This document shows, one piece after another, positions 4,633 through 63,800 of a stretch of 64,000 nt of DNA (positions are counted from its first letter, which is position 1; each line of letters begins with the position of its first letter). The stretch covers positions 186,001 to 250,000 of the forward strand of contig NW_027590242.1 of NCBI RefSeq assembly GCF_964213995.1, given 5' to 3'. The notes under the pieces were generated by a model. The model was not told the origin of the DNA. It did no database searches and was given only the letters and a program-made list of their open reading frames with translations. The translations under genes and the position numbers were made by a program. This DNA is from Mustelus asterias. Its lineage: Eukaryota.

Positions 4633-5232
4633 AGTAAGAAGTCTCACAACACCAGGTTAAAGTCCAACAGGTTTATTTGGTAGCAAATACCATAAGCTTT
4701 CGGAGCACTGCTCCTTCGTCAGATGGAGTGGATATCTGTTCTCAAACAGTGCAAACAGACACAGAAATCAAATTACAGAATACTGATTAGAATGCAAATC
4801 TCTACAGCCAGCCAGGTCTTAAATGTACAGACAATGTGGGTGGAGGGAGCATTCAACACAGGTTAAAGAGATGTGTATTGTCTCCAGACAGAACAGCTAG
4901 TGAAATTCTGCAAGTCCAGGAGGCAAGCTGTGGGGGTTACTGATAATGTGACATAAATCCAACATCCCAGTTTAGGCCGTCCTCATGTGTGCGGAACTTG
5001 GCTATCAGTTTCTGCTCAGCGACTCTGCGCTGTCGTGTGTCGTGAAGGCCGCCTTGGAGAACGCTTACCTGAAGATCCAAGGCTGAGTGCCCGTGACTGC
5101 TGAAGTGCTCCCCCACAGGAAGAGAACAGTCTTGCCTGGTGATTGTCGAGCGATGTTCATTCATCCGTTGTCGTAGTGTCTGCATGGTTTCCCCAACGTA
5201 CCATGCCTCGGGACATCCTTTCTTGCAGCGTA
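4633..5232 (-). mobile_element. Penelope-like element 3' part: GIY-YIG endonuclease end plus pseudo-LTR with hammerhead ribozyme
   Basis: ORF 4937..5320 contains CKKGCPEAWYVGET...RMNEHR...VGEHF...GLN (GIY-YIG of Penelope). The downstream region holds CTGACGA-A-GGAGC-AGT-GCTCC-GAAA. Confidence 0.9.
4688..4730 (-). ncRNA. Minimal type I hammerhead ribozyme (Penelope pLTR)
   Basis: Minus strand CCAT-CTGACGA-A-GGAGC-AGT-GCTCC-GAAA-GCTTA-TGG: intact core boxes, 5-bp stem II, palindromic AAGCTT stem III, UUA cleavage triplet and CCA/TGG stem I. Confidence 0.8.
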
Positions 5233-5599
5233 TTTTAAGCCCTTGCATGATCTGTTGTTTCCATTTAACATTTTTTAAAAATTCATTCCTGGGACCTGGG
5301 CGTCGCTGGCTGGCCAGCATCTATTGCCCATCAATCGTTGCCCTTGAGAAGGTGGTGGTGATCTGCCTTCTTGAATCGCTGCAGTCCATGTTTAGCAAAC
5401 ACTCACTACAAAAGGATAATGAATATCATTGAAAGGTGGGGAGCACAATCCACATCAATCACCTTTTCCAAATCTATTCCTGTACCTCGTGGTGCACTAA
5501 GACAGGCGTTTGTCTGTTCCCATAGCAAGTTCTTTCAGGAATAGGTCGCTCGTCTGTTTCCAGGGCATTGTAACTTGAGAGACATCACTCCGCAACAAC

Positions 5600-9261: not shown

Positions 9262-12200
9262 ACACACACATCCGAGTGAGAGTTTTCCAGTGAATTGACT
9301 GTGGAAAAAGCTTTATCAATTTCTGTCTTGAAGACGCTCAACGTCTCGGCCTCCACAGCCCTCTGTGGCAATGAATTCCACAGACCCACCACTCTCTGGC
9401 TGAAGAAATTTCTCCTCATCTCTGTTCTAAAGTGACTCCCTTTTATTCTAAGGCTGTGCCCCCGCGTCCTAGTCTCCCCTGTTAATGGAAACAACTTCCC
9501 TACGTCCATCCTATCTAAGCCGTTCATTATCTTGTAAGTTTCTATCAGATCTCCCCTCAACCTCCTAAACTCCAATGAATATAATCCCACGATCCTCAGA
9601 CGTTCATCGTATGTCAGGCCTACCATTCCTGGGATCATCCGTGTGAATCTCCGCTGGACCCGCTCCAGTGCCAGTATGTCCTTCCTGAGGTGTGGGGCCC
9701 AAAATTGCTCACAGTACTCCAAATGGGGCCTAACCAGTGCTTTATAAAGCCTCAGAAGTACATCCCTGCTTTTGTATTCCAAGCCTCTTGAGATAAATGA
9801 CAACATTACATTTGCTTTCCTAATTACGGACTCAACCTGCAAGTTTACCTTTAGAGAATCCTGGACTAGGACTCCCAAGTCCCTTTGCACTTTAGCATTA
9901 TGAATTTTGTCACCGTTTAGAAAATAGTCCATGCCTCTATTCTTTTTCCAAAGTGTACGACCTCGCACTTGCCCACGTTGAATTTCATCAGCCACTTCTT
10001 GGACCACTCTCCTAAACTGTCTAAATCTTTCTGCAGCCTCCCCACCTCCTCAATACTACCTGCCCCTCCACCTATCTTTGTATCATCGGCAAACTTGGCC
10101 AGAATGCTCCCAGTCCCGTCATCTAGATCGTTAATATATAAAGAGAACAGCTGTGGCCCCAACACTGAACCCTGCGGGACACCACTTGTCACCGGTTGCC
10201 ATTCTGAGAAAGAACCTTTTATCCCAACTCTCTGCCTTCTGTCTGACAGCCAATCGTCAATCCATGTTTGTACCTTGCCTCGAATACCATGGGCCCTTAT
10301 TTTACTCAGCAGTCTCCCGTGAGGCACCTTGTCAAAGGCCTTTTGGAAGTCAAGATAGATAACATCCATTGGCTCTCCTTGGTCTAACCTATTTGTTATC
10401 TCTTCAAAGAACTCTAACAGGTTTGTCAGGCACGACCTCCCCTTACTAAATCCATGCTGACTTGTCTTAATCCGACCCTGCACTTCCAAGAATTTAGAAA
10501 TCTCATCCTTAACGATGGATTCTAGAATTTTGCCAACAACTGAGGTTAGGCTAATTGGCCTATAATTTTCCATCTTTTTTCTTGTTCCCTTCTTGAACAG
10601 TGGGGTTACAACAGCGATTTTCCAATCCTCTGGGACTTTCCCTGACTCCAGTGACTTTTGAAAGATCATAACTAACGCCTCCACTATTTCTTCAGCTATC
10701 TCCTTTAGAACTCTAGGATGTAGCCCATCTGGGCCCGGAGATTTATCAATTTTCAGACCTTTTAGTTTCTCTAGCACTTTCTCCTTTGTGATGGCAACCA
10801 TATTCAACTCTGCCCCCTGACTTTCCTGAATTGTTGGGATATTACTCATGTCTTCTACTGTGAAGACTGACGCAAAGTACTTATTAAGTTCCTCAGCTAT
10901 TTCCTTGTCTCCCATCACTAGATTACCAGCGTCATTTTGGAGCGGCCCAATGTCTACTTTTGCCTCCCGTTTGTTTTTAATGTATTTAAAGAAACTTTTA
11001 CTATCATTCCTAATGTTACTGGCTAGCCTACCTTCATATTTGATCCTCTCCTTCCTTATTTCTCTCTTTGTTATCCTCTGTTTGTTTTTATAGCCTTCCC
11101 AATCTTCTGACTTCCCACTACTCTTTGCCACATTATAGGCTCTCTCTTTTGCCTTGATGCATTCCCTGACTTCCTTTGTCAGCCATGGCTGCCTAATCCC
11201 CCCTCTGATAACCTTCCTTTTGTTTGGGATGAACCTCTGCACTGTGTCCTCAATTACTCCCAGAAACTCCTGCCATTGCTGTTCTACTGTCTTTCCCACT
11301 AGGCTCTGCTTCCAGTCGATTTTTGTCAGTTCCTCCCTCATGCGCCTGTAATTACCTTTATTTAACTGTAGAACCTTCACATCTGATTCTGCCTTCCTTC
11401 TTTCAAATTGCAGACTGAATTCTACCATATTATGATCACTGCTTCCTAAGTGTTCCCTTACTTTAAGATCTTTTATCACGTCTGGCTCATTACATAACAC
11501 TAAGTCCAGAATAGCCTGTTCCCTCGTGGGCTCCATCACAAGCTGTTCCAAAAAGCCGTCCTGTAAACATTCAATGAATTCCCTTTCTTTGGGTCCACTG
11601 GCAACATTATTTACCCAGTCCACCTGCATATTGAAATCCCCCATGATCACTGTGACCTTGCCTTTCTGACATGCCCTTTCTATTTCGTGGTGCATTTTGT
11701 GCCCCTGGTCCTGACCACTGTCAGGAGGCCTGTACATAACTCCCATTATGGTTTTTTTGCCTTTGTGGTTCCTTAACTCTACCCACACAGACTCCACATC
11801 GTCTGACCCTATGTCGTTTAGTGCTATTGATTTAATTTCATTTCTAATTAACAAGGCAACCCCGCCCCCTCTACCCACCCCTCTGTCTTTTCGATAGGTT
11901 GTGAATCCCTGGATGTTTAACTGCCAGTCCTGAACCCCCTGCAACCACGTCTCTGTGATGCCTACCACATCATACCTGCCAGTCACAATCTGGGCCACAA
12001 GCTCATCTATCTTGTTCCGGACACTGCGGGCATTTAAATATAGCACCTTTAATTCCCTATTGACCGTCCCTTTTTGTTTTCGTAGTGTGGTGGACCTTGG
12101 TTTACTGAGCCTTTCCAGACACTGTGTCATATTTTGTGAGATGGGGACTATCGTAACCTCTCCTGAGTGCTGTCTTTTCGTGATTTTTTTGTAATCCTAA

Positions 12201-13600
12201 GCAGCTACGCTTCCCACTGATTCCTTCACCTCTTGGTTCCCTGACTTTCCCTTCCCCCCCAATCTCTAGTTTAAAGTCCTATTGACCACCCCATTTACTC
12301 TCTTCGCCAGAACACTGATCCCAGCTCGGTCCAGGTGGAGACCATTCCAACGGTATAGGTCCCCCCTGCCCCAAAACTGATGCCAGTGTCCCATGAAAAA
12401 GAACCCTTCTTTCCCACACCACTCTTTCAGCCACGTGTTAACTTCCCTTATTCTTGCCTCCCTATGCCAATTTGCACGTGGCTCGGGCAGTAATCCGGAG
12501 ATTATGACCCTTGAGGACCTGTTTTTTAATTTGAATCCTAGCTCTTTATAATCTCTAAACAGGTCCTCTTTCCTAGACTTGCCTATGTTGTTGGTACCAA
12601 CATGGACCACAACAACTGGATCCTCCCCCTCCCTCTCCAGTATCCTTTCAAGCCGGTCAGAGATGTCCCGTACCCTAGCACCGGGCAGGCAACATACCAT
12701 GCGGGACACTCTATCCTGCTCACAAAGGATCCTATCTATCCCCCTGATAATAGAATCCCCTACAACTACAACTTGCCTATTTACTTCCTCCCCTTGAATG
12801 GCCTGCTGAACCATGGTGCCTTGGTCAGCTGACTCATCCTTCCTGCAGCCCTGTGACACAGCCTGAAAAATTGAGACCAGGCGCCTGTATTTGAGACGGA
12901 GGAGAAATCAGCCATGATCTGATTGAATGGCGGAGCAGGCTCGAAAGGCTGAATTTGGCTACATATTCCTTTGTTCAAATTCAAAAACATTGCAACATTC
13001 ACAGCGGGGAGAAACTATACACATGTTCTGTATATGGACGAGGTTTCAACTAATCATCTAATGTGGAGAAACATGATGGTATCGACACCACAGAGGAACT
13101 GTGGATATGTGGGGACTGTGGGAAAGCATTCACTTGCTCATCCAAACTGGAAACACATCGACACTCCCACACTGGGGAGAGGCCCTTCACCTGACCCGTG
13201 TGTTGGAAGGAATTTACTCAAACATCCTGCCTAACATTACACCAGCGAGTTCACCCTGGAGAGAGACTGTACACTTTCTGTGTGTGTGGGAAGGGATTTA
13301 TCCAGATACATAACCTCGAATTACACCAGAGAGTTCACACCAGGGAGAGGCCGTTCACTTGCTTCGTGTGTGGGAAGTGGTTCATTAATTCATCCAACCT
13401 CGTGAAACACCAGCGAGTTCACACTGAGGAGAGGACTTCATCTGCACTGACTGTGGAAAGAGCTTCAGACATTCATCCAGCCTCAAAGCACATCAGCGAC
13501 TTCACACTGGGGAGAGACCATGCACCTGCTCAGAGTGTGGGAAGGGATTCACCACCTCCTTCCACCTGGTCACACACCAACGAGTTCACGAGTGAGTGCA
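9080..13600 (+). pseudogene. C2H2 zinc-finger gene pseudogene, split by a CR1 (9316-12853) and a CR1 tail (12871-12980)
   Basis: Acceptor ttttgcag at about 9080. The finger ...gactgtggaaaaagcttta (9315) resumes at gacacagcctgaaaaa (12855) and cattcacagcggggagaaa (12995). There are tandem HTGERPFTC-type fingers over 13000-13590, with an in-frame TGA near 13190 and a frameshift near 13435. Confidence 0.85.
9316..12853 (-). mobile_element. Young CR1 LINE: ORF1 esterase part plus ORF2 (APE endonuclease and RT), one frameshift near 9950
   Basis: ORF 12266..12859 GDSIIRG...VHVGTNN...GLHL (SGNH esterase ORF1). ORF 9917..12130 LNARS, ITETW, GDFN, NYRPISL, DFQKAFD, GVPQGSVLGP, FADD. ORF 9132..10007 gives the C-terminus. 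Confidence 0.97.
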
Positions 13601-25346: not shown

Positions 25347-27504
25347 TGTTCAAATCACATTGCGCTGTCGAACAGTACCCAGTGTTAAACAGGTACAAGA
25401 GACGCTGCCATTGAAATGATGTGCAGAACTCTGAGAATATCCCAGGAATCCCCGCTGTTCAAGGCAGTTTTATGGTTTTAATTTTATTTCTATTCCTTTT
25501 TTGCCACCACACTGATCTCATTAGGCTGGGGATTTGGGACCATCAACATTTCTCCCTCGCATTTTCATGAAGTTGTTTGCAAAAAGGCTTTAATTGCTTT
25601 GACAACGGGCCATCTGGACTGGAAACATCAGCTCCTTTCTCTCCTGACAGATGTTGCCAGACCTACTGAGATTTTCCAGCATTGTCCTTTGGTTTCAAAT
25701 GCCAGCATCCGCAGTAATTTGCTTTTATCCAGGCTTTAATTATTGGAATGACATTTACTTGGAAGTTGTACAAATAAAATATCATCTTGCCAATTTATAT
25801 TTTCCGATAGTATTTAATCACAGAATGAACATGACATTTATTTAAAACATTTGTTTAGATGGTTGAGATGAGAATGAAACATTTATTGTTTAAATGGCTG
25901 AATCCTATTTTGTCCATTCAGATTCGCGCTAATCTGTTCCACACAGTATTTGGCAGCAATCCAGCCTGCTGCCAAATGCCCAAAGTTGTTTACAGGAAGC
26001 ATCTTGGGGTGTTGTTCAGTAAATCAAAGATGTTTTAACTCAGTACTTAAGCCAACTTCAAACTCTTCGGATTTTCAATGAGGACTCTTTATAAACAAAT
26101 ATAGCCTGCAATGGTACTGCAGACAATTAAATTTTCCGACGTTGTAAACCTATATGAATTATTCTCATCTCTCAAGAAAGGAAAGTTATCCAGCTTCTCT
26201 GACACGATACTGGTACCAAAGATGAGCTATCCAACAGATCTGAACATTGCGATGGACAGACAGAAATAAATACAGGCAGACAGTGATAGTTGACTCACAG
26301 GGAGATTACATGTTGCATACATAATTATGTATGTTTGTATTGTCTTTCCCTTTCATCTTCCATGGGCTGTGGAAAGTCTTGCAACTCCAGCATTTGTTTC
26401 CTCTCCCTAATTCCCTTGAAATGATTGGTTTTCTAGGCCGTTTCGGAAGGCATTGACGAGTCTGCCACATTTCTGTCAGTCTGGAGAAACATCCTGGTGA
26501 GAACAGGTGGCATGGCAGATTTCCTTAATTGGTGAATCAGAGAGGTGTCCATGATCACCATTCTTCTGTATTCCAAATGTATTAATTGAATTCAAATTCA
26601 ACCAGCTGCCAACGTCAGATTTAACTCGTGTCCCCATAGCATCAGCCTGGGCGTCTTGCATTAATATTAATCCATCATCTTTCCTAAAATAAACAAATGA
26701 TTGTGTTGATGCAGGAATGAATGATATTTGGATGCCTGATTATTTTGATTGAGGAACCAGTGAATGGAATGATGGATGTAACGATCGATGATTTTTAAAT
26801 TTTGCTCTTCTAGACTCTCATATTTGTGTTTGACTACTTCAGAAATTGATGCAGATTTTGTATTTCATTTGTGTCAGTCTATAACCTTCTGTCCTTCCAG
26901 CTTTTCTGGGTGAATTTCACCCCCGGGCTAACGGGAACAAACGAGCTGAACCTCTTTGAGAGGAGTCTGGAGATATTCCTGTATTTCCTCTGCTGATGAT
27001 CAGTCTTCATATCCAAGATAGAAAGAGGGGACATAATTAGGTTGAGGAGGGAGGATTGTAACATTTGGAACATGTGGCCCTTTCATGTGCAACAAATTAC
27101 TCAACTTATCATCATTCATATTGGGGAAGTAACAGGCTAAAATGTTAATAATATGGGAACAGGAATATCGTGAAAGTTACTGGACAGATGCAATTTTTTA
27201 ATTGCGTTCCAAAACAATGTAACACCAAATCGGGATTTTAAGATTCCAAAACTCCACAATAGGGACAGATAGTTTCAGTTATACAGTCGCTTTAAAAAAC
27301 GGATCGCACGCCCCAGTTATATATCGTGAGTTTCTGTGAGATGATGAGGTGATCACTTTTCAATGAAGTGCAGAGGCTGCTGGGTAGCTGGTCATTATCC
27401 TCGGTCTGAATTAATTTATTTTCCCATTGAATTCTGGAACATATTTGATTCACAGAAAGGCCAATGTGGTCTCAATAAGTTTGAATCTCAATTAATTATA
27501 TCAA

Positions 27505-41718: not shown

Positions 41719-41778
41719 ATTTTTCTTCCTGGTTTTAGAACGTGTTAGGTGAACATGATAACCACTATACTGAAGCAG
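41719..41778 (-). pseudogene. tRNA-Val(AAC)-derived relic with internal deletion
   Basis: Minus strand cagtatagtggttatcatgttcacctaacacg...aaaccaggaagaaa resembles vertebrate tRNA-Val. Confidence 0.55.
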
Positions 41779-42333
41779 CTGATCGCAGAGCCCATGCAAT
41801 CAGGCTGTCTGCAATGTTCAACTCCACTATGTTGTTGCAGGTTCTAATGGTGAAACTGACAGCCCATGTCACTGAATACAAGAAGACAAACGTTACATCC
41901 GACCGGATGTCTCAATTTATCTTGAACTTCAAAATTTAAAATCTTTCATCTGTCAAATGTCTAAGAGAGCAATGATTTATGCTCAATCATTAATGCATCA
42001 TTCTCACCTTCCTTCGAATAGTATCAACCAATTCTACTCAGTGTATGTTTCATAGAATCATAGAATCCCTATAATGCAGAAAATGCCATTCGACCCAACG
42101 AGTATGCACCGACCCTCTGACATCCTATCCCCGTAACACCACAGCTTTCCTCTGGATGATCTATCTAACCTAAGGGGCAGTTTCGCATGGCCAATCTACC
42201 TAAACTGCGCATATTCTGTCAATATTTAATATCCGTACATTTATTAATATAAATGTTATCATCGTGAATTGAACTTATCTGAAATACATAATATTGAATT
42301 GCAAACATGACTGACCAACAAAAGAAATCGAGT

Positions 42334-42682
42334 TTAAAGCAGAACACTGCGGATGCTGGAATCTGAAACAAAAACAACAAATGCCGCAAAATCCCAGCAG
42401 GACTGCTAGCATCTGCTGGGAGAGAATGGAGCCAAAGTTTTGAGTCCAGATGACTCTTCGTCAGAACGTATTTCCTCCTTTCATTCCATGAAGCTGATTT
42501 TTCTCCGTGTGAAGTCATTGTCCAATCCAAATTTGAAGAAGGAGTTTCTGCATTTTGCCTTAGTTAACAAAAGTTATCTGACGAAGCGTCATCTATTAGA
42601 CTCGAAACGTTGGCTCTATTCTCTCCCCACAGACGCTGTCAGACCTGCTGAGGTTTTCCAGCATTTTCTGTTTTTGTGTGTG
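42334..42682. mobile_element. Composite insertion: two inverted hammerhead-bearing Penelope-type short elements around a 109-bp cargo, with 14-bp TSD
   Basis: AAAAGAAATCGAGT at 42320-42333 and 42683-42696. The left arm (minus) carries CTGACGA-AGAGTC-ATCTG-GACTC-AAAA and the right arm (plus) carries CTGACGA-AGCGTC-ATCTATTA-GACTC-GAAA. Confidence 0.85.
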
Positions 42683-43740
42683 AAAAGAAATCGAGTCGCT
42701 GGGTGATACAGATCCCATGGTGTTTATTTCACATTGAGCACAGGCAGCTATTAAACAAAGTCAAATATCTTAAAAGGGAAGACGTTTAAGAATGATCTAT
42801 TAGTTATACTTGATCCCCTTTTATTCTGGGTGTGAAACATTCTGGCGCCTAAATCCTGTTCATCTATAGGGAAGTCCAGCAGATCGCACTGAGTCTTGAT
42901 TTCGTCATCTGCCTGAGTGTTTTTTTGCTACTTCTCTATTATGATGAACGATGTTAAAAGATTGTTCTGCGCAATGTTGCCATTTCCTCTAGTTCAGTTA
43001 CAGTATCACTTGTGTCCGCTTTATTAGCACACAATTCCATTAGATATGTTTCAGATGGTGATTATAGGTTTGTAGGTGCAGACATGTTAGTCTGCACCTA
43101 TAAACCCATTGAATTTTGTTGTACACTGAACGAATTGCCAACATGTGCATCTTATCAAAATAGGAACATTTCATTCCTCATGACGTCTTAAAATGCAGCA
43201 TTTCTGAATTTGCTGAAAGCATTTGGGGCCGAGGTCACGTCAAATATAATATGGCTGTAACATCGAGATTCTGATAATGTTCAGAAACAAGCTTGAATCC
43301 TGCAAACATCGCAGTTCTATGTTTCCAATCGGTTGCAAACCAGTGACTTTTCGGGTGCAAGGCGAGCGTGATGACCAATAAGCTACAGAAATGATTGTTT
43401 ACTCTAAAACCTAAAGGGACTGTCTCTGTATCATTCACTGCTCTCAGGCCCGCATTCATCTCTGTACTTCAGTTGGATTGTCTCTGAATCATTCCGCTCA
43501 ATCTCAGCCTTGCCTATGTCAATGACTTTTATAGCTCTCTCAAAGTGTACAGGTGCATTGGATGATATAGGAAGTGTACAGCTTAGGGACTAAGGACTTA
43601 CTTGCCTGCATAGCACCGTTGATCAAATCTTTAAACATGGTGGGTTAGCAAGCACTGAGCTGATGCTCTGCTGACGCTTCATTCAGCCACCTAGTCTTGG
43701 AAATTTCTTCGACATTAAACAGAGAGATCAGGCAGTGACA

Positions 43741-43890: not shown

Positions 43891-44551
43891 TGTACAGGGA
43901 TAGGAAAACATACCTTTCAAGTTATCACCAATTTACACTTGCATATTGCTCAGATCTACCTTGCAGCCACATTCATTTTACTGCTGCATTGTTTTGATTA
44001 AATGTTTATTTTTCTATTCTTTGATTGAAGTGTTTTTAGGCGTACATTTCTTCCCATCTGTTCTCTCTTTTGTTCGCTCCCTCAACATCAACTTCATTAC
44101 TCCCTTTGTCAGCCGGAGATATCCCCTACCGCCCCGCCCCCTTTTCTATCGTCCCGTTCCCTGGTTAAATCTCGCAGTCCATGAGGTGCTGTCGGGCAGC
44201 TCTGAAGCCTTTTTAAGTCTGAGCAACCTTTACTTGGTGAAGCTGATCTTCCCAGCCAAGCCTGAATTGAAGCAAATAACAATTGGAAACGAAACATAAA
44301 CTCTTTAACTGATAGCTACTCTCTCTCTCTCACTCTCGCCGATCAACCTTCCAGTCTGATGGGATTCTGCTGTGTGTTGTCTCAGCCGATCCTGGATTCA
44401 GTTGGGTGACAGTTTGATCCGAGGTTAATGAGGTTTCCTCTGGGTGTGTGTTGGAGCGGCTGACAGCGCCGCTGCTCAATCTGGCTGTAACCTTCCGCGA
44501 TTCTCTGCACAAACCTCAACAGACTGGAGCACCCAATGATAGCTGGAAAGC

Positions 44552-44590
44552 AGTTTTTGTACGGGGGTGAGACTGCTTTCTATCACTGTG
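44552..44590 (-). promoter_or_regulatory. 23-bp-spacer recombination signal sequence
   Basis: CACAGTG (44590-44584), a 23-nt spacer, then ACAAAAACT (44560-44552). Confidence 0.97.
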
Positions 44591-45158
44591 AGGCTGAAAG
44601 CGCAGTAATAGCGGCCAGCGTCAGTCAGCTGTAGGCTCGAGATGGTTAAAGTGGTTAATTTAGCCGAGGTCTGGAGATCAGCAGAGAAATTTGGTCCAAA
44701 AACTTCCCCTCTCTCTTCTTGTGTATCCCAGGACCTTTTCCATATAATGAACTGCAAATTCTTCTGTGGCTGCTGTCTGTACCAATATAGGACATAGGCG
44801 CTCGCTGTTGTGCTGTAGGTACATCGGAGAGTCACCGTTTCACCTTCTTTCCTCTCGAAAGACTGCGGCTGAGAAACAGAATCTCCATCACTCGGATCTG
44901 TAACATGTATTCAAGAAGAAAAATAAACTATGTGTTGGATGTGCTGCTGAAATAATATTAACACTTTACAGTCCAGTCTACATAACTGGAGTTATGAAGT
45001 AAAAACAAATAAAGGCTGAATTACTCAGCAGCGTCAGGAAGCATCACTGGAGAGAAGCAGAGTTAAAGTTTCAGATCGAGATAACATTTAACCAGATTGG
45101 AGTCATCCTTACCGACAAGAAACAGCCCGAACACAATGCATACGGTGAGGAACTCCAT
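44591..45158 (-). CDS. T-cell receptor alpha/delta-type V gene segment, apparently functional (leader exon 45158-45113, V exon 44897-44591)
   Basis: Leader MEFLTVCIVFGLFLV with a GTAAG donor and a TTACAG acceptor. The V exon reads DPSDGDSVSQPQSFERKEGETVTLRC TYSTTASAYVLYWYRQQP...TLTISSLQLTDAGRYYCAFSL with no stops, followed by a perfect 23-RSS. Confidence 0.93.
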
Positions 45159-47994: not shown

Positions 47995-48338
47995 GGATAA
48001 ATGCTGAAGCTTCAGTGTTTCAAGATCGATCTAAATGAAGCGCTCTGGAAGGACAGAGCATATTGTTGGACTGTAAATACTCGACAGCTGCTTTTCAAAC
48101 TGTGTTCTGGTGCATCCACTATCCCGGGCAAGCTCTGCGATATTTGATGAAGATATATAGCTCGGGCAATACCGATACGTCTCCGGATTTGTCAGATAGG
48201 TTCTCGGCTGCTTTGCACAAAGGAAACAACACTGTTCCTTCAAAAATCGCCAGGGCTCTTCTGCCTGACAGCGCCGTGTATTTCTGTGCCATGGAGGCCA
48301 CACTGGTGCAGAAATACAGCGAACCCCGCACAAAAACC
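47995..48338 (+). pseudogene. T-cell receptor alpha/delta-type V pseudogene with RSS
   Basis: TTACAG acceptor, then GINAEASVFQDRSK*SALEGQSILLDC...FWCIHYPG...DSAVYFCAMEA. In-frame TGA at 48036. The RSS is CACACTG (48299), 24 nt, then ACAAAAACC (48330). Confidence 0.9.
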
Positions 48339-48363
48339 CCAGACTGGGAGTTCCGGTTAGAGA

Positions 48364-48378
48364 TCAGCAGAGGGCGCT
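48364..48378 (+). promoter_or_regulatory. CTCF-like motif just downstream of the RSS
   Basis: TCAGCAGAGGGCGCT matches the CTCF core, about 25 bp after the nonamer. Confidence 0.55.
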
Positions 48379-60849: not shown

Positions 60850-63800
60850 GAGGGAACTCAACATTTGCACTGTCAAACGGTTTCCCCGTTTCAGACTTTT
60901 CAGTAAGATCACCTCTGATAATTCTAAACTCCAGAGCGAACAGACTCATCCCACTGATTCTCTCCTTGCAGGAGAAACGCAGAAATCAATCCAGTGAACC
61001 TCGGTTACACACAGACAGCGAAATAATGGACAGAGCAAGGAGCAAAATATGTCAACGTAATAAAAACATAGTCAGAGAGTCTGAGGGAGATATATAGAGA
61101 CATGAAAAACAGAAATAGCGAGTGTGGTACACTTCCACAACCCACGAATGAATAACAATAATTACACAGCCAGCTGTCTCAACCAACAAACATGGGGTCC
61201 TCTAAACTGGTGAACAGCGATAAAGTGAATGGCCACAAGCATATTAACAATGAAAATATTTCCATTGACATCCAAAGCTGCTCAGACTTCTGCAGTGAAA
61301 GGTGAAAATGCTGGAAAAACTCAGAAAGCCAGACAGCTTGTGTGCACAGGAGAACAAATCTTATATTTTAGCTCCATAACCTTTCATTGGGAATAACTGG
61401 GAATTTTTAGAAATGTAGGAAGTTTTAAACAAGTGTTATCCAGCCGCATAGCAAGAGGGTTTGAGGCCTCTTGCGGGTGTAAATCAGGAGAGATTAAATG
61501 AGGGAAACAATGAAGTTTAAAGAAATTACACCACAGAATGGGGCCATTCCTAAGCCCCTTACAGGACTCAGTTGTGGTGTGGATGAAGGGGAACCTGTGG
61601 ATGTAATGTACGTAGATTACATTGGAGCCACAGTGATGAGTTGGTGGGTTTTGAAAATTGAAATTTGCACTTAGGAACATAGAATTCGGAGTAGACGTGG
61701 GCAAATTCAGCGCTTCGAGCCTGAACCGTCATGCAATCAGTTCATGACTGATCTCTCCCTGTTCTCAAATCCACCTCCCTACCTGTTCCAATATCCCCTC
61801 ACCCCTTTAATTATCAGGAATATATCTGTCTCTTTCTTGAAATCATTTACTGATTCAGACTCAACCGCGCTATACGGCAATGCATTCCACAAATTCACGA
61901 CCCTTAGTGAAAAGCAGTTCCTCCTCATCTCAGTTTTAAATCTACCACCTCTCAACCTATACATTTGACATGGTGTTCCCGATTGCGCATAAGAAAAAAG
62001 ATTTTACTTTCTTTAATACTATTAAGAATTTTATAAAGCACGATCACTTCAGCATCTTGTGGGAGTATTTCACCTCACTGTCGATTTCATGTCCCAGCAA
62101 GCACAATCGGTGTTGTCATTAGCTGAAGCAGTCACTTATGTTCCCTCCAAACTGGACACATTCAGGGATATATGGAAAGTCATTTTGAAACACACAGTTC
62201 ACCCGCGGCCCTGGGAGTCCAGTGGGTTGTATTCTGTACTCCCCAGTGTTGTTTGTTTTCAATTCCCGCTCAGGAAACGATTATTTATAGCTCTCGGCAA
62301 ACTATTCAAAAATAGCCTGATTTACTATCTGATCGAAAGCAGATCTACTAATATCAGCCGAGTGAGTTTTGCAAGTTGACATCACAGCTGGAAATGTCAC
62401 ATGTGCAACAGGTCAAAAACACAGTTGCAAGAAAGACAGTGATCGGCTGGAAAGAGCTGACAACAGAGATGGTGATGTAAGGTAACATTTGGATGGTAAA
62501 TTGATCAGATTTTGGCGTTCACACTGAATTATTCAACTTGTCCCTCAATCTGCAACGAAAATATTTGGAAAAGGTTCTCTCCAGTTTCGAACAGTCGGAA
62601 GCGGAATTAATAACTGTAAGTGGAATGTCTGTTGTATGTTGTCACTAATTGAATGTATCACTAGGCTGGTAACAGAAAGTGCCATTTTGCAACAGAGACT
62701 TGCTTGTGGTGAATGTAGTCTGGCCTGGCGCGAAAAATAAAGCAACACATGCAGTGTGTGTAAAGTAAGTTGTAAAACAGGCAACAAGCTGCTGATCTGG
62801 TGGTTAGAGTCTGACACTTTCACTGCTGTTTGGATTGGTGGTCAGGTAATGGAGATTTGTTGCTCTCATCCAAACCGTAAAAACAAACGTCAGTTATTGC
62901 CTGGTGGAACATATAAAACACAATGTCGCCTCGTGTCCTGAAGTGAAGACTGCGCAAATTCAACAGGAGGTTTTTTTTTGTCATTTCTGGCAGGATATTG
63001 GGAACCAGACATGGTTAAGGGCAGTTTAAATGGTGCTGGTCCTTCACTGCAACTCATTCTGTTTCTGACTGGATGTGATTCCTGTTTGTTACACAGTTCA
63101 GGATAAATTGATTCAGTGAAGGAGCAGGCTCAAGCCAACTGATGGACTGTCGCAGCTCCTTTGCTGCTAATTTCAATAACAATACCAATAAAGAACGCAG
63201 CTGCTTACGTGGTAACGTAGCCGAGTAATTTCAGCCAGTGGTTGAAAGTCCAATTTCGACGGAGTTGTTGTGTTCGACTGCAGCCACTGCCAGAATGGGT
63301 TTGAGTTTTGGTCCCTGCAGTTGAAGTCCAGCATTTCAGATTGAATGCAAGAATTTGTGTTGTGTCGTTTTTGGCATGAAGAAAGAGGAGCGACAGAGCA
63401 ATGTAAACAGTTGTTGAGGTAAATGAACGAGTGTGGAAGGAGTGGAGCAAATTATCGTGGATTCTGGTATCGGAAACAAAAAGAGAAAATGCTGGAAAGT
63501 CTCACCAGCATCTGTAAGGAGTGAAGAAAGCTGACATTTCGAGTCCAGATGACCCTTTGTCAAAGCTGGGAGGAATGGAGTTGCTCCGATAGAGAATACA
63601 AACGGGAACACCGGTTGAATGGCTGTCTGTCGAAATAAACAGCAGGATTGCAAACATTGAGACTGCAGTCCCGGCCCAGGGGATGTGTTGGGATGTTCAA
63701 ACTGAGGTTCAAATCCTGACGTGCGCTTCCCGTCATTCCTCATTGTGACTTCTTTTTAAATTGAAAGTTATTGGAAATGAAGCAATGGGTGCAGCTATGA

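Follow-up and report, generated by a model that had tools for sequence, protein, structure and literature searches.

The insertion at positions 42320..42696 of the window (the whole 64,000-nucleotide stretch of Mustelus asterias DNA analysed here) is probably the product of a single insertion of a Penelope-like element (PLE), during which a new cDNA end copied approximately 119 nt from a position approximately 1 kb distant, after which the two halves were joined. The insertion and its host context consist of the following parts:

42320..42333 (+), left copy of the 14-bp target-site duplication (TSD), an exact repeat that is present once at empty paralogous sites
42334..42469 (-), long arm, the 3' pLTR end of a Penelope-like element with a tail of approximately 35 nt
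42470..42575 (+), cargo, host DNA in the donor's orientation
42576..42677 (+), short arm, a pLTR end without a tail
42678..42682 (+), 5-nt GT-rich filler between the short arm and the TSD, read from the sequence and also found in L001-L008
42683..42696 (+), right copy of the 14-bp TSD, an exact repeat
41741..43425 (no strand assigned), host context, one of the duplicated units of which a degenerate tRNA(Val-like) tandem array consists

The 14-mer direct repeat that a sequence-only reading of this DNA had reported around a 349-nt insert was confirmed, and within the window it occurs only at 42320-42333 and 42683-42696. Also confirmed were the opposed arms, which lie head to head with 80 per cent identity across 101 nt, and their CTGACGA boxes at 42458-42464 (minus strand) and 42578-42584 (plus strand). 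The arms are unequal in length (approximately 133 nt on the left, with a 3' tail, and approximately 100 nt on the right, without one), so that a tail of 30–40 nt is found at one end only. The 5' end of the long arm is situated 4–5 nt upstream of its CTGACGA box. The cargo is located between the arms, as had been described, but the part that matches a donor spans 42470-42575 (106 nt) and not 42468-42576; its right junction shows a GTT microhomology. The GT-rich filler at 42678..42682 presumably arose by slippage.

The arms are the 3' ends of a PLE that encodes a reverse transcriptase (RT) and a GIY-YIG endonuclease (EN+). They match sequence located downstream of RT and GIY-YIG frames, on the same strand, in six of eleven longer copies of the element, and two more of the eleven carry partial arm matches in this position. 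Because the copies have decayed, the parent frames score weakly in Pfam, with both domains below the cut-off (RVT_1, E = 0.0036; GIY-YIG, E = 0.012). A Cys-rich linker between RT and EN is visible by eye in translations of the longer copies, and the family looks, from these sequences, similar to the Neptune clade. The window also contains, at 4937-5320 (-), the GIY-YIG end of a second Penelope-like family, which is 30 per cent identical to the arm family. Three further solo arms, which are older, belong to the same family as the insertion (approximately 25600-25725 (+), 53777-53860 (-) and 63459-63562 (-)), and two of them likewise start near a degraded hammerhead box.

Among 200 arms, 131 have intact cores of the predicted minimal hammerhead (CUGANGA and GAAA). 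Pairing is found in 94–98 per cent for helix II and 77–92 per cent for helix I, in copies that are related to each other, so that these values do not amount to proof of covariation. The features of PLE minimal hammerheads (cores, helices, bulge and the palindromic 15.2-16.2 pair) are all present, and a search of Rfam gave no hammerhead match. In the window copy, the GAAA core of the left arm is mutated, and the right arm has intact hammerhead boxes, one mismatch in helix II and an incomplete 5' strand of helix I.

The 14-bp repeat is a true TSD, as paralogous units without the insertion hold a single 14-mer. The empty site, in which the left and right flanks of the window insertion are joined around one 14-mer, was found in seven of the 12 donor loci fetched. 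Among the matches listed (the first 100 of 390), 20 of 22 distinct sites are empty and the other two are known filled paralogs. Eight loci (L001-L008) are paralogs that share both the insertion and its flanks (87–100 per cent identity) and therefore trace back to one event that was duplicated afterwards. No one-armed intermediate, as expected from separate insertion of the arms, was seen among the 22 sites listed or the eight filled paralogs. A single TSD brackets the whole unit, its two copies abut the 3' ends of the two arms, and no separate TSD belongs to either arm in the window. The unit thus contains an inverted 5'-truncated element copy within one TSD, as in EN+ PLEs. The true TSD, the abutting arm ends and the recurrence of this anatomy in the genome support the earlier proposal of one integration event primed from both nicks.

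The cargo had been regarded as unique, but it is host DNA with a donor in units that lack the insertion. When the M. asterias genome was searched for the cargo, 135 candidates were obtained, of which 40 were scored, and the many host copies of the sequence have continuous flanks. In empty units, the donor lies 0.7–1.1 kb downstream of the empty site and in the same orientation as the cargo; in two further units, this distance is approximately 2.5 kb. As the donors have no arms, the possibility that the cargo belongs to the element's consensus was rejected. In L008/L100, the insertion and the native donor occur together, approximately 1.0 kb apart. The homology of the window unit to the donor-bearing paralog L100 stops at 43425, and hence the window copy is without its native donor; neither a second cargo copy nor a native donor was found anywhere in the window. 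The cargo is 119 nt long in L008 and 106 nt long in the window, 13 nt near 42550 having been lost in the window lineage (the deletion is present in seven paralogs and absent from L008).

The cargo differs from donors in other units at 11–14 of approximately 106 positions and from the cis donor in L008 at 18 of 103, whereas at six positions the cargo agrees with the cis donor and not with the nine others. Both the cis donor and a nearby paralog are therefore possible sources. Overall, the cargo was likely copied from approximately 1 kb away during the insertion.

The head-to-head pairing of one long with one short arm is the routine insertion form of this element family. The genome scan for inverted pairs with TSDs, which had been suggested from the window sequence, identified at least 278 head-to-head pairs, a lower bound that refers to an exact-motif pattern with spacers of 0–300 nt. 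In the first 50 of these 278 pairs, direct joins with a 4-nt spacer occur 11 times, and the spacer is exactly AGCT in seven. We examined 100 of the 136 pattern matches with spacers of 20–500 nt, a set in which L123 and L124 represent a single duplicated event. Arm ends in the examined pairs cluster at approximately 95 and 130 nt; 66 pairs combine a long with a short arm, and two consist of two long arms. A TSD of 10–17 nt brackets 31 of the 100 pairs, in comparison to none of 200 mismatched controls. The mismatched controls were used instead of a reversed pattern, which gave no matches, because the latter is blind to chance adjacency of copies. Paired arms share a loop variant in 48 of 80 cases compared with 27.5 in shuffles, and in 14 of 24 compared with 7.3 when only TSD-bearing pairs are considered (P-value = 0.001). 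This is consistent with the two arms having one source or one time of origin. In L061, L067 and L152, there is no outer TSD and one arm has its own TSD, and each of these loci looks like two separate insertions. The reverse holds for the window, L075, L068 and L082, where an outer TSD is present and none belongs to an arm.

Most long spacers in the examined pairs are element sequence. Several of them (L052, L069, L071, L073, L065, L066 and L087) represent remote internal stretches of the element ORF, which implies that template jumps took place along the element RNA. Spacers with inverted-repeat ends occur in L055, L084 and L151 (around 4850-5150), which suggests either fold-back or the templating of both cDNAs by the same second template. 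Host-DNA spacers with a donor 0.9–5.6 kb away were found in four of the 100 other pairs. In L075, the TSD is a perfect repeat of 17 bp and the donor, at a distance of 1.7 kb, shows 90 per cent identity, the next best of 40 scored matches having 77 per cent. The donor of L149 is located approximately 1 kb away and is the best match in the genome, with no TSD detectable at this locus, and L068 combines an 11-bp TSD with a donor 5.6 kb away (83 per cent identity across 47 nt). L082 has a two-piece cargo from 3.7 and 4.2 kb away, of which one piece is a common SINE and the other adjoins another arm. In this locus (L082:770-871 and 4873-5128), the right arm together with 86 nt of upstream host flank matches a solo arm 4.2 kb off (93 per cent identity), and it is possible that a neighbouring arm was re-copied together with its flank. 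Each of the four single-piece local cargos (window, L075, L149 and L068) has the same orientation as its donor, and the donors occur on both sides of the insertions, in what is a small sample. Donors were not found for the spacers of L055, L058, L059 and L060; genome searches with the spacers of L067, L061 and L055 yielded no full-length donor, and wider flanks (15 kb on each side) of six loci contained only one donor, that of L068.

These features would be accounted for by the following series of steps. The element endonuclease would cut both strands, 14 nt apart, and both 3' ends would prime reverse transcription, which would begin at two internal positions approximately 35 nt apart and give rise to the long and the short arm. 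Both cDNAs would halt at the AGCT palindrome that immediately precedes the hammerhead box on its 5' side, a point at which direct joins are frequent. One end would then prime on nearby genomic sequence by 2–3 nt of microhomology, be extended and join the other end. The unit would later have been duplicated to at least eight copies, most of which would have lost the native donor. As the template of the cargo, DNA is weakly favoured over nascent RNA.

Some observations speak against this single, locally templated event. The left arm has 12–17 differences from the family's commonest letters and the right arm 5–8, and nine and three of these, respectively, are common to all eight paralogs; the identity between the two arms (0.81–0.84) is at the bottom of the range for the 27 TSD-bearing pairs (0.82–0.96). 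The more diverged left arm would be explained if two separate insertions had been accompanied by an unrelated short local duplication, and two-step pairs do occur in this genome, as in L061, L067 and L152. We nevertheless consider this scenario improbable, since a single TSD surrounds everything, no intermediate was found among the 22 listed sites or the eight filled paralogs, and comparable asymmetry exists in other TSD-bearing pairs (10 versus 2 and 13 versus 5 differences). A two-nick insertion in which the Penelope RT jumped onto RNA transcribed nearby or in a paralogous array unit has a somewhat better claim but is still unlikely. Template jumps do happen, as many spacers are other parts of the element RNA (L052, L069, L071 and L073); the text of PMC10191854 reports one case in which a nearby pre-mRNA was inserted together with L1; and trans paralog donors differ less from the cargo than the cis donor does. 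On the other hand, the uniformly direct orientation of the four single-piece cargos, with donors on both sides, is expected for copying across a break, although the number is small. Local templating is itself weakened by the small number of other pairs with a local donor (four of 100) and by the several spacers for which none was found, as well as by donor distances beyond those typical of L1 and cargo sizes beyond those typical of Pol theta, whose insertions are typically shorter than 25 bp according to the text of PMC12426944.

The sequence-only reading had instead invoked the capture of viral RNA, and this is largely refuted at the window locus, since the cargo matches host sequence approximately 1 kb away in the same duplicated unit, an outcome that the sequence-only reading had itself listed as refuting. 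The minus-strand peptide of the cargo does read as had been stated. It had been likened to PB2 of TiLV, but no viral similarity was detected: the peptide has no matches in PDB at E-values up to 10, or in Pfam, and TiLV polymerase structures are deposited in PDB (as given in PMC10709604). The N-terminal part of the peptide is present only in copies with the 13-nt deletion, which means that a later deletion created part of the virus-like peptide. The donor frames likewise have no matches in PDB at E-values up to 10, in Pfam or in a longer-protein search, and their best value in the Atlas is 0.77. Two matches (P0001 and P0002) among 1.84 billion representatives were rejected as repeat proteins with weak single stretches that had been summed. 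Open frames flanking the insertion contain nothing viral (best PDB E-value of 0.19), and 71 frames of at least 28 amino acids from 15 selected spacers gave no Pfam matches at an E-value of 0.01, in a comparison of low power. Neither similarity to a viral protein nor a foreign nature of the cargo before its insertion, as expected of an Amnoonviridae-like endogenous viral element, was found. We therefore regard it as very improbable that the element bridged a TiLV-like viral RNA or that the host donor is itself an unrecognized endogenous viral fragment. The donor does lie within a 122-codon open frame in two paralogs (L101:4886-5254, plus strand, and L103:4826-5194, minus strand), which is repeated in many units, it is AT-rich by eye, and highly divergent viral proteins may evade such searches. 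However, no homolog of this frame was found and coding constraint was not seen, third positions are not enriched among the differences between donor copies, and a 4-nt indel shifts the frame in four of the eight copies compared. Even with a viral donor, the insertion would have copied a sequence that was already endogenous.

Returning to local templating by a single two-nick insertion, we give slightly better than even chances to its generalization: Penelope two-nick insertion would recurrently template 50–200 nt of host sequence, from up to approximately 6 kb off, into the junction of the two cDNAs; the hundreds of pairs would be a fossil record of the PLE joining step, with the helix I palindrome as the default annealing site. 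The same joining step could in principle take up foreign RNA, and no such case was found.

Several components of this picture are already published: pLTRs in inverted pairs, the tails, sequence captured between pLTRs and, for L1, local templated insertions. In EN+ PLEs of Adineta vaga, as described in the text of PMC3846280, there are head-to-head pLTRs within one TSD, with a tail at one end and palindromic junctions, and also unrelated sequence captured between solo pLTRs with TSDs and proven by an empty site. The cases in that text are few and the captured sources are not given there except for a member of a multigene family, whereas here there are hundreds of minimal pairs and five cargos traced to 0.7–5.6 kb. 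Inverted pLTRs with captured sequences in rotifers are also mentioned in PMC8557442. For the Poseidon protein PAc, the text of PMC11167929 reports nicking and extension of both strands, with the tail defined by a pair of internal RT start sites, in agreement with the arm ends at approximately 95 and 130 nt found here. That system is in vitro only, its text does not describe junction formation or host-DNA capture, and it refers to the steps after PLE reverse transcription as unvalidated. Unlike Poseidon, the family studied here has a Cys-rich linker and is Neptune-like in look.

The predicted hammerheads resemble the minimal hammerheads of metazoan PLEs in the bulged base before helix II, the short helix I and the palindromic 15.2-16.2 pair, as presented in PMC4209133. 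Its text also notes dual motifs 100–700 bp apart on opposite strands in Schistosoma and contains no analysis of TSDs or of the sequence between such pairs. Twin priming and templated insertions of L1, as covered in the texts of 10.1101/2024.08.27.596794, PMC11702581 and PMC10191854, are similar in that both nicks prime, the TSD is discrete, joins use microhomology, and nearby genomic DNA (<250 bp) or pre-mRNA is copied in. They differ in that the two products of L1 twin priming come from different parts of one RNA, whereas both arms copy the same RNA segment here, and in that L1 templates are typically within 15 bp, whereas the donors here are kilobases off. Local cargo from kilobase range at PLE junctions was not found in the literature searches or in the texts cited here, to which supplements may add such cases, and the texts of bioRxiv 10.64898/2026.07.22.740005 and PMC9977147 provided nothing further on PLE junction cargos. 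At the window locus, a proposed route for viral sequence into the germline is removed. The hundreds of minimal two-arm insertions, with their arm lengths, junction palindrome and occasional local cargo, constrain the steps that follow reverse transcription, and these constraints are testable in the existing in vitro PLE system.

Elsewhere in the window, antigen-receptor V-set exons are situated at 44476-44910 (-) and 48039-48671 (+) (Pfam E-values of 3e-16 and 7e-11, respectively), the former followed by a heptamer-nonamer-like signal, and interspersed with these exons are tRNA-like arrays and zinc-finger remnants (13168-13600). At 9917-12196 (-), an open frame of 759 codons that includes endonuclease and RT domains represents a well-preserved piece of a LINE, which we take to be of CR1/L2 type. 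Intact-looking tRNA genes for Thr-CGT (51879-51951, plus strand) and Lys-CTT (60533-60605, minus strand) score above the Rfam threshold.
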